Origin: Escherichia coli
GTDB lineage: Bacteria; Pseudomonadota; Gammaproteobacteria; Enterobacterales; Enterobacteriaceae
Assembly (NCBI RefSeq): GCF_003334255.1
Contig: NZ_QOWU01000005.1
Length of the DNA: 64,000 bases
Reading direction: 5' to 3' (one strand)
Of the stretch, positions 58,248 through 59,411 are shown in pieces (positions within the stretch are counted from its first letter, which is position 1; each line of letters starts with the position of its first letter). A model generated the notes under the pieces. The model was not told the DNA's origin. It saw only the letters and a program-made list of their open reading frames with translations, and searched no databases. Made by a program: the position numbers and the translations under genes.

Positions 58248-59411
58248 TTATCTGGAATCGATTTGGCTGTTCTGCCTGGTTGCCACCAAATCATGGTACG
58301 CCTGCTCAATCATTTCATTCAGCAGTTTTTTTGGGAGGACACCACGACTTCGGGCAATACTTTCAAGCTGTTTGTGGATTTTTCCGGACAGTTTCAGAGG
58401 GACGGAACCATCAGCACGTTCATCACGCCTTTTTTGTTGCTCCCGGGCACTTTTCAGCTCATCAAGAAGAATCGCTTTATGCTGAATCCTGGGGGCCTGG
58501 AAGGAGACCTGCGTAAACTTCGCTCTGTTCCGTCTGGGATTACTTTCCAGTAAAAACTGTACCTGTTGCTCATTCCAGCCCTCCCAGTTATCAAACGTGG
58601 CGCAGGCAAACCAGTATTTCTGCTCCGGGGTAAGGGGATTCAGCGGGGTTCCCACACACCGGATCTGCATGGCGTTCCATAACCAGTCACACTGTTCACT
58701 GTCCCTGCTGTCCACCCACGAAAAGGGGGAGGGGTAATCATTGTTTATGCTGGCCCATTCAGAGAATACTGAGTTGATAATCGTCCTCGTAGCCTCTGGT
58801 CCGGATTTCAGCAGGTAACTGGAGCAGAACCATATAATTTCACGGTAGATTTTATCCGGATGCACGGTGCGCATCGGCTTTTCTCTGGGACCGGCAATCT
58901 TCGGTTGCGATGGAAACCCCGTGGCAAACCGCAGATGTTCCGGGGGCATTCCTGAACGTTTTTCAGGAATGGGTGTGAGTCCTGCGTTTCTGGTCTTTTC
59001 CGCTTGTCCGGTATTGCCTCCGGCCGGAGTGTTGTCGGGAGTATCTTCCGGAGGCGAGGTGTTTTCATTAGTTGGGGGAACAACAGCAGAACTGTCCATC
59101 TCCGGAATGGGTTGAGGGGCATAATCACTGTGGTAGCCAGGGGAAAGCGTTAAGTCCCGAAGGGTGACATCAGGTTCCGGGCAGTGAGTGCCACCGGGAG
59201 TGAACGGGAGTTGTTGCTTTTGGGAGAAAAATGTATTGTGAATGCGGGTATACAGCTGGAACAGAAAAAAATAAGATGCCCGTGGTTCTTTTTTTAACCA
59301 CTGTGTATATTCCTCTATGGCACCGAGCTGTTGTTTGTGCCGTTTTACAGCATCGATATACGGACAGCTGGTGCAGATATCATCCAGTTCCTTTCCCACA
59401 ATACACCTCAC
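58248..59411 (-). CDS. Hypothetical island protein with Pro/Thr-rich central linker and C-terminal ribbon-helix-helix-like segment
   Basis: 387-aa ORF; central low-complexity region (PPTNENTSPPEDTPDNTPAGGNTG); C-terminal LKLSGKIHKQLESIARSRGVLPKKLLNEMIEQAY resembles an RHH DNA-binding fold; the true start may be internal. Confidence 0.5.
   Translation of the reverse strand: MRCIVGKELDDICTSCPYIDAVKRHKQQLGAIEEYTQWLKKEPRASYFFLFQLYTRIHNTFFSQKQQLPFTPGGTHCPEPDVTLRDLTLSPGYHSDYAPQPIPEMDSSAVVPPTNENTSPPEDTPDNTPAGGNTGQAEKTRNAGLTPIPEKRSGMPPEHLRFATGFPSQPKIAGPREKPMRTVHPDKIYREIIWFCSSYLLKSGPEATRTIINSVFSEWASINNDYPSPFSWVDSRDSEQCDWLWNAMQIRCVGTPLNPLTPEQKYWFACATFDNWEGWNEQQVQFLLESNPRRNRAKFTQVSFQAPRIQHKAILLDELKSAREQQKRRDERADGSVPLKLSGKIHKQLESIARSRGVLPKKLLNEMIEQAYHDLVATRQNSQIDSR

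Follow-up and report, generated by a model that had tools for sequence, protein, structure and literature searches.

The described proteins closest to the one considered here are the ribbon-helix-helix (RHH) repressors of the CopG/Arc/MetJ type, which have 45-100 amino acids (aa) and carry the RHH at or near the N-terminus. We analysed a gene on the minus strand of a stretch of 64,000 nucleotides (nt) of Escherichia coli DNA (contig NZ_QOWU01000005.1 of assembly GCF_003334255.1; "the window" hereafter means this whole stretch), and in its product the RHH-like segment is formed by the last 50 of 383 residues. As in CopG (pMV158), Arc and Mnt (P22), CopB/RepA2 (IncFII) and YbfE, this segment is a basic strand-helix-helix of ~40 residues in which polar and hydrophobic strand residues alternate; as with the CopG/Arc/MetJ repressors, the gene is located on a mobile element beside a control region, and the profile and structure matches to this group are weak but consistent. 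Unlike these repressors, the protein has a scaffold of ~300 residues without known relatives in front of the RHH, and no family threshold is reached.

Other RHH proteins share less with it. MatP also combines a helical domain, a basic helix and an RHH, and it is the best PDB match of the C-terminal profile, in an alignment that includes the helix before the strand; however, MatP is the product of a chromosomal core gene and binds the palindromic matS, and its C-terminal coiled coil is missing here. With TraM, TraY, VirC2, ParG and Omega there is no sequence relation beyond the RHH, and the locus has no relaxase, ParA or type IV secretion context. Stl, the master repressor of the phage-inducible SaPI islands, uses a helix-turn-helix; the analogy with it is functional only: a large, fast-evolving multi-domain protein, here predicted to bind DNA, is located where an integrase-bearing island has its divergent control region. 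Unlike the case of SaPI, we know of no helper phage or inducer for the CP4-44/CP4-57-type islands.

Coding status, domain layout and the C-terminal segment

Comparative sequence data indicate that the gene is coding over its whole length and that it is a genuine backbone component, not cargo, of CP4-44/CP4-57-type integrative islands of Enterobacterales. The listing of open reading frames (ORFs) in the window has one of 387 aa on the minus strand that begins at the first GTG and occupies 58248..59411, exactly as in the original prediction, whose peptide strings CTSCPYIDAVKRH, WVDSRDSEQCDWLWNAMQ and WFACATFDNWEGWNEQQ are all present in the translation. In RefSeq, the Prokaryotic Genome Annotation Pipeline (PGAP) begins the protein (WP_000514100.1, "hypothetical protein") at the second in-frame GTG, 59399, and this start is favoured over GTG 59411 by the Shine-Dalgarno-like AGGTGAGG 6 nt 5' of it; residues are numbered throughout in the resulting 383-aa form.

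Of 5426 complete E. coli genomes, 2097 (~40%) contain the gene DNA, at 2556 places in all, and 1964 match it over at least 80% of its length; the 90% cluster of the protein contains 4098 member sequences, all without a name. Three rarer E. coli variants with 72-77% protein identity (P0004, P0006, P0007) have 372-380 aa, and their codon alignment with the window shows five indels, all multiples of three, four of which fall in or next to a linker described below. An exhaustive HMMER search of 1.84 billion representatives returned 59 proteins, including full-length relatives at 22-36% identity; a word-indexed profile search found no distant members beyond these, and a profile search of genome contigs gave only 5 loci. 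The family alignment was composed of 24 sequences, in which the order of elements is constant: N-terminal motif, linker, ANG-type motif, Trp-rich core, basic helix, strand-helix-helix. Only 3 matches, near-identical, were found on plasmids; for a phage origin, tblastn against 50,697 phage records gave no match and the matches to PHROGs were only sub-threshold.

The wide occurrence of the gene, the in-frame indels, the order of motifs kept at 22-36% identity in other Enterobacterales and the predicted fold together carry the conclusion that the whole ORF is coding. The alternative, already raised in the original prediction, is a short C-terminal gene to which a non-coding leader was joined in silico, or more generally a decaying or spurious ORF. 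It could draw on the high ratio of nonsynonymous to synonymous substitution (dN/dS), which in the E. coli variants is 0.37-0.75 over the whole gene and 0.58-0.77 over the linker, on the frameshifted or truncated copies present in databases (P0013-P0021) and on one island remnant that keeps only the last ~60 codons. This alternative is, however, already contradicted by the data and extremely improbable: homologues in related islands are conserved at full length and are not shorter at the N-terminus, W34, R40 and the Trp core are nearly invariant, the N-terminal motif and the core persist across genera, the predicted fold is confident at residues 13-62 and 181-300, and the gene is matched over most of its length in the 1964 genomes mentioned above.

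Among the E. coli variants the synonymous divergence (dS) is 0.07-0.31 in the core and C-terminus against 0.16-0.66 in the linker, which points to mosaic recombination or to a constraint at the nucleotide level. The remnants with the last ~60 codons (query nt 949-1132) are found in L002 5998-6209 (E. coli GF130), H71 and H72, beside an iron-uptake ABC/TonB cluster; they are deletion remnants, with the recombination breakpoint inside the RHH-coding part. P0015, P0017, P0020 and P0021 (213-252 aa) are partly in another frame, the same as that of the 106-aa ORF 58808..59128, and are frameshifted copies or assembly errors, no shorter isoform.

By its sequence the protein founds an unnamed family, made of helices with a Trp-rich core, a predicted disordered loop, a basic helix and a C-terminal RHH (Table 1). 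AlphaFold2 (AF2), with the family alignment as input, predicts a folded N-terminus and core and a disordered linker; the predicted local distance difference test (pLDDT) is 76 for the whole model and exceeds 85 at residues 20-50 and over most of 180-380, where two 10-residue blocks drop to 70-77. The Pro/Thr-rich linker of the original prediction proves to be disordered and fast-changing in both the alignment and the model: residues 63-150 include 16 Pro, 11 Thr and 8 Gly (isoelectric point, pI, 4.4), vary in length and sequence and are absent from short-form relatives. The Cys-containing N-terminus is present in the window protein but is no family feature, as in the 24-sequence alignment only the E. 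coli clade has the CxxC (residues 9-12). Residues 151-302 contain 8 Trp, with the core motifs PFSWxDxxDxEQCxWxW ... ATFDxWxGW, where W215, W228, W239 and D270 are invariant and W272 is invariant or nearly so; the C-terminal 81 residues (303-383) have a pI of 10.1. The likeliest reading of the model is that the N-terminal helices and the core pack as one globular bundle with the linker looped out, which would explain their joint conservation. In structure comparison, the N-terminal/core domain of the full-length model resembles a death-fold six-helix bundle; a death-fold identity of the Trp-rich core is a possibility only, as the resemblance was not reproduced with the isolated domain.

The original prediction could place the protein in no family, and this still holds. 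Pfam gives no match for the query even at E<=10, and the 24 members scanned singly give only scattered noise at E>0.02; NCBIfam, PADLOC, including its families of known anti-phage defence, and PDB sequences return nothing for the query, and outside the RHH nothing usable is found in PHROGs, NCBIfam or PDB. Searches with profiles of the hidden Markov model (HMM) type yield RHH-type matches at the C-terminus and no named family. In AFDB50 the same fold is found only in uncharacterised Enterobacterales proteins (Escherichia, Pluralibacter, Enterobacter, Paramixta, Salmonella, Hafnia, Pectobacterium), and nothing on this gene turned up when the literature was searched for the accessions and for the island genes. 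As a DNA-binding fold the RHH is nothing unusual; a moderate novelty resides in the ~300-residue scaffold without relatives, the looped-out linker and the RHH at the extreme C-terminus.

The C-terminus appears to be RHH-type on the basis of several weak but concordant sequence, profile and structure matches, so that the resemblance noticed in the original prediction is seen again in independent comparisons that agree. A profile of the last ~84 residues against PDB has MatP (E 0.05), Reg576 (0.15), CopG (0.44) and MazE7 among its top matches. With hhalign, VPLKLSGKIHKQLESIARSRGVLPKKLLNEMI was aligned to RLTITLSESVLENLEKMAREMGLSKSAMISVAL of CopG over the strand-helix-helix (P=6e-5, probability 65%), using a CopG query sequence that agrees with the PDB 2cpg/1b01 matches of the C-terminal profile. 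Divergent members match, always at the C-terminus, Arc-like repressor PHROGs (E 0.003-0.03), NCBIfam YbfE (NF008671, E 7e-5, below its cut-off), CopB/RepA and BrnA. Residues 332-372 read VPLKLS, GKIHKQLESIARSRG, (VL)PKKLLNEMIEQAYHDL, a strand-helix-helix pattern kept in 20 family members, with a strand that alternates as x-L/I-K/S/T-L/I-x in the family alignment. AF2 places helices at 339-352 and 356-382, and the model is structurally similar to solved RHH domains, with TraM, ParD/ParG-type folds and RHH antitoxins among the matches.

Three narrower classes were compared, and the protein fits none of them. For MatP the hhalign probability is 9-23% and concerns the RHH only, Pfam MatP is not matched, and the alignment of the basic helix that precedes the RHH to the pre-RHH helix of MatP is marginal. 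The type II RHH antitoxins do not fit a protein of 383 aa with a C-terminal RHH, whose short forms have no GTPase neighbour while the leader of that GTPase occurs in ~3.6x more places than the gene. Centromere binders of the ParG/Omega type are made very unlikely by the lack of ParA among the neighbours and by the presence of only 2-3 repeats.

Island position and the upstream repeat block

Islands of the CP4-44/CP4-57 type count among the most common mobile elements in E. coli, and carriers of the gene include Nissle 1917, ATCC 25922 and ST131. The islands carry an integrase, AlpA, a Gp2-like YagK/YfjJ protein, the YeeP GTPase and, further on, DUF932, antirestriction genes, RadC and CbeA/CbtA toxin-antitoxin pairs, together with Ag43 and variable cargo. 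In the near-identical E. coli strain 7/2 the PGAP order on the upstream side is Gp2-family protein, AlpA-type helix-turn-helix protein, a 200-aa hypothetical protein, a gene-poor spacer and the gene itself, followed by the GTPase, dynamin-family, RdcB/YjcZ-family and patatin-like genes, DUF932, antirestriction, YeeS, YeeT, CbeA, CbtA and yeeA. Relatives at 26-36% identity have the Gp2-like, 200-aa and AlpA genes leftward, an intergenic region of 0.4-1.1 kb, and the gene with the GTPase rightward; this fixed order holds in Serratia quinivorans, S. liquefaciens, Hafnia paralvei, Brenneria and further assemblies, and the rightward genes beyond the GTPase are WYL, DUF932, antirestriction, RadC, CbeA/CbtA or Ag43. 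The GTPase follows the gene in every long-form locus examined. A short form of ~288 aa has no linker, an extra N-terminal segment and no adjoining GTPase; it is found either at an island edge or with YagK/YfjJ on one side and the integrase on the other.

The gene diverges fastest among the backbone genes. Between the window and the S. quinivorans and H. paralvei loci its protein is 27% identical, against 40-41% for the Gp2-like protein, 57-59% for the 200-aa protein, 59% for the GTPase and 78% for AlpA, and the Brenneria and S. liquefaciens loci rank alike.

Upstream of the gene, two CTAYR repeats 11 bp apart form a candidate operator; the sequence of the region that best fits a sigma-70-like promoter lies ~50 nt upstream of them. 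Its hexamers do not vary in any E. coli variant, with L007 as the most divergent included, and neither does the repeat block, although the flanks of L007 have diverged. Among the fetched loci the block is found only where the gene is present; in the complete genomes it occurs in 2091 (2472 places), against 2097 for the gene, and it is unannotated everywhere. On these three grounds, invariance, occurrence with the gene only and near-equal genome counts, the repeat block is linked to the gene. In distant homologues two or three CTAYR motifs lie exactly 11 bp apart at -100 to -175, for example CTACGTTTTTACTACG. The strict pattern CTAYR-N6-CTAYR is found in 3 independent lineage groups, a number reached by none of 1000 dinucleotide shuffles, although this test overstates the significance, as the pattern was defined after inspection of the data. 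A fourth lineage (L023) carries CTAYR repeats, and two related lineages (L012, L024) carry TTACTA-N5-TTACTA instead.

The alpA/200-aa block (window 61793-62890, minus strand) is co-oriented with the gene in E. coli and divergent in Serratia, Hafnia, Brenneria and other assemblies (L016-L018, L020), which indicates that the control module was inverted in the lineage of E. coli. The 2.4 kb of the window that separate the 200-aa gene from the gene (59412-61792) contain no ORF longer than 100 aa; in the matching stretch of strain 7/2, PGAP marks AAA ATPase fragments and another pseudogene, and an IS100 is inserted. The stretch looks like a cargo slot that has decayed. A second idea, that this spacer is what remains of a paralogue of the gene, was rejected, as an HMM search of its six frames found nothing.

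Function of the protein

We consider the protein, with a probability of about one half, to be a sequence-specific DNA-binding regulator of the island control region, which is the best reading because an RHH is combined with a fixed position beside the AlpA/Gp2-like control module. For the same reasons the regulator proposed in the original prediction is retained, and the replication/partition factor named beside it loses its partition part, since no ParA-type partner adjoins. The protein would dimerise through the RHH and insert the two-stranded VPLKLS sheet in the major groove at the phased CTAYR repeats of the control region; once bound, it would control its own rightward operon, the divergent alpA/Gp2-like module, or both, while the N-terminal globular domain might serve higher-order assembly or signal reception. 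The data show the coding status, the family with its architecture, an RHH-like C-terminus, the constant synteny and the linked repeat block, whereas binding to the repeats, repression or autoregulation and any sensor role are what we infer. Apart from the integrase and AlpA we know of no described component of the control circuitry of these islands, and a gene at the junction of the alpA/Gp2-like module and the long backbone operon, with a linked promoter/repeat block, is an obvious candidate for the missing regulator. A family name together with a candidate operator would offer an experimental handle on silencing, induction and mobilisation of the islands, and the name would replace thousands of "hypothetical protein" annotations.

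Several observations weigh against a regulator of this kind. The repeats are kept across lineages in which the protein is ~26% identical but AlpA 72-78%, and they could be AlpA sites instead; their pattern, as said, was chosen after the fact. In E. coli they are ~570-650 nt away from the start codon and a terminator-like hairpin intervenes, which is odd for a simple autorepressor. Each of the RHH matches is below the family cut-offs, and the monomer AF2 model lacks the VPLKLS strand, yet this is expected of a sheet formed between two molecules. Given its high dN/dS, the protein is under weak selective constraint. Moreover, the GTPase has a 101-nt leader that is matched at 9325 places (4248 E. 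coli genomes), against 2556 for the gene; many E. coli islands with this leader lack the gene, so that the GTPase module can do without it, and in one of them its place is taken by a YfjI-family gene and no remnant is left.

A regulator could also be more than a local one, although we find it doubtful that the protein is a signal-sensing master regulator, comparable to the Stl of SaPI, of a large, unrecognised class of satellite-like islands. By this analogy a phage protein or a stress protein would be sensed by the fast-evolving composite helical domain, which might be an adaptor of a bacterial death-fold-like kind, and the RHH would be released from the repeats, so that the alpA/Gp2-like and GTPase operons are turned on; an arms race would then explain the fastest divergence among the backbone genes.

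If the protein is not a regulator, the adjoining genes suggest other roles. It is possible, though rather less probable than regulation, that it assists the Gp2-like protein or the integrase/AlpA in DNA processing, with its RHH bound to an origin or recombination site in the intergenic region, by analogy with TraY, TraM, NikA, MobC and VirC2, which aid relaxases, or with CopG/CopB, which control Rep. The constant adjacency to AlpA and to YagK/YfjJ (PF11726 / REP_ORF2-G2P, rolling-circle-initiator-like), the short-form gene placed directly between YagK/YfjJ and the integrase, the structural match to TraM, the weak matches of divergent members to the RepB-RCR_reg and CopB/RepA replication-control RHH families, and the helically phased direct repeats, typical of accessory sites of origins and oriT, are all consistent with it. 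On the other hand, no nicking site or origin has been identified, the E. coli repeats adjoin a promoter-like element, as an operator would, no activity has been demonstrated for the Gp2-like protein of these islands, and the E. coli gene has been retained though several kb and an inversion separate it from the Gp2-like gene. The GTPase on the other side raises two further readings. As a protein-level partner of the GTPase, the N-terminal/core domain would be an adaptor or an antitoxin-like controller and the RHH would be autoregulatory, as in type II toxin-antitoxin systems; the GTPase does follow every long form and RHH antitoxins are among the matches, but short-form relatives lack the GTPase, about three quarters of the E. 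coli copies of the GTPase leader lack the gene, a conserved terminator-like hairpin stands between the two genes and the domain order is the reverse of that of RHH antitoxins, so that we judge this role unlikely. Very unlikely indeed is a ParG/Omega- or TubR-like centromere protein that would act with the GTPase and the repeats to segregate or position the island after excision: an RHH protein with upstream repeats and a downstream NTPase recalls tubC-tubR-tubZ or parH-parG, and ParD/ParG-type folds are among the RHH matches, but there is no Walker-type ParA, the GTPase has an Era/dynamin-like P-loop (Pfam MMR_HSR1) and is no known cytomotive filament former, the repeats are only two or three, and the GTPase is widespread without the gene.

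Leader, GTPase spacer and neighbouring genes

Table 1. Features at the locus, with window coordinates
Feature	Position	Strand	Basis and remarks
YeeP/YfjP-type GTPase, 290 aa, downstream neighbour	57292..58164	-	ORF listing, annotation, synteny
83-nt spacer: box TTTCAGACAGATATTATC, GC hairpin with U-tract, outer helix	58165..58247	-	cross-lineage comparison, single-sequence folds
Coding sequence, 383 aa and stop	58248..59399	-	ORF listing, PGAP WP_000514100.1; full length conserved
Putative ribbon-helix-helix, residues 332-372: strand VPLKLS, helix GKIHKQLESIARSRG, helix PKKLLNEMIEQAYHDL	58284..58406	-	sequence, profile and structure matches
Long basic helix HKxxLLxELKxAxxQxxRR, residues 303-331	58407..58493	-	K308, A318, Q321, R325 conserved
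RFATGF (ANG-type motif) and Trp-rich all-helical core, residues 151-302	58494..58949	-	conservation; pLDDT 85-97
Pro/Thr/Gly-rich acidic linker, residues 63-150	58950..59213	-	predicted disordered; pLDDT <50 for residues 72-144
N-terminal helices, residues 1-62, motif WLKxxPRAxxFF	59214..59399	-	conservation (W34, R40 nearly invariant); helices 13-62, pLDDT 79-95
Shine-Dalgarno-like AGGTGAGG	59406..59413	-	read from sequence; 6 nt before GTG 59399
Hairpin with U-tract, terminator-like	59456..59476	-	scan; ~57 nt before start codon, inside putative long leader
CTACGAAATTCCTATG: two CTAYR repeats 11 bp apart, candidate operator	59964..59979	-	the one place in 64 kb where the pattern matches
Best sigma-70-like match of the region: TTGACA, 16 nt, TACGAT	60027..60054	-	promoter scan; candidate, ~620 nt 5' of start codon

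From the candidate promoter a putative leader of ~620 nt (window 59400-60054, minus strand) would precede the gene; it is conserved among the E. coli variants and specific to E. coli. The hairpin region within it is likewise conserved in these variants, and the hairpin was not found in the other lineages checked. Rfam gives no family match in 56000-64000, and the leader interval holds no ORF conserved among the E. coli variants. In fact, the 86-aa ORF 59794..60054 was rejected as a conserved gene because its frame is not kept in L006 or L007, and the 105-aa ORF of L007, tried as a conserved small leader ORF, is not conserved in the window. AlpA of Pseudomonas aeruginosa is 21Q-like, with residues up to 142 and the ABE GGGACG (PMC9371919). 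An "AlpA antiterminator" mechanism as in P. aeruginosa was rejected for the window: the architecture of that AlpA differs from the 68-aa PF05930 AlpA found here, and the hairpin is E. coli-specific.

The distance to the GTPase depends on the start chosen for it. The 44-bp gap of the original prediction is right for the longest GTPase ORF only (GTG 58203); from the annotated ATG 58164 the spacer is of 83 nt. The spacer elements were also observed in L008, L011, L012, L016-L018, L020, L022 and L024, between the homologue and the GTPase: the box is conserved across genera, the GC hairpin is kept between lineages while the hairpin sequence differs, and the outer helix pairs with the Shine-Dalgarno region of the GTPase. 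Single-sequence folds of the spacer gave z-scores of -2.2 to -4.7; they were used because RNAalifold recovered only 3 pairs in the GTPase leader from a MAFFT alignment, which is not structure-aware. The element belongs to the GTPase unit and not to this gene, because the 101-nt element recurs in the 4248 E. coli genomes given above, and it may be an attenuator or a translational control element.

On the 3' side of the GTPase the window (52709-57074, minus strand) encodes a dynamin-family protein (798 aa), an RdcB/YjcZ-family protein (301 aa, with stop/start overlap) and a patatin-like phospholipase (356 aa). This cluster consists of island paralogues of the chromosomal rdcA/rdcB (yjdA/yjcZ) pair with a lipase, and in L003 it follows Ag43; the GTPase and dynamin-family neighbours give only weak LeoA/LeoBC matches in PADLOC, and the cluster may be a defence or membrane-remodelling module. 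In the gap between the GTPase and the dynamin-family gene (57135-57185, minus strand) the unit ATCGATCGTTA is repeated, among others in the palindrome CGATCGTTATAAACGATCG, which a T-run follows, and the scan flagged this segment as terminator-like and overlapping a weak promoter match.

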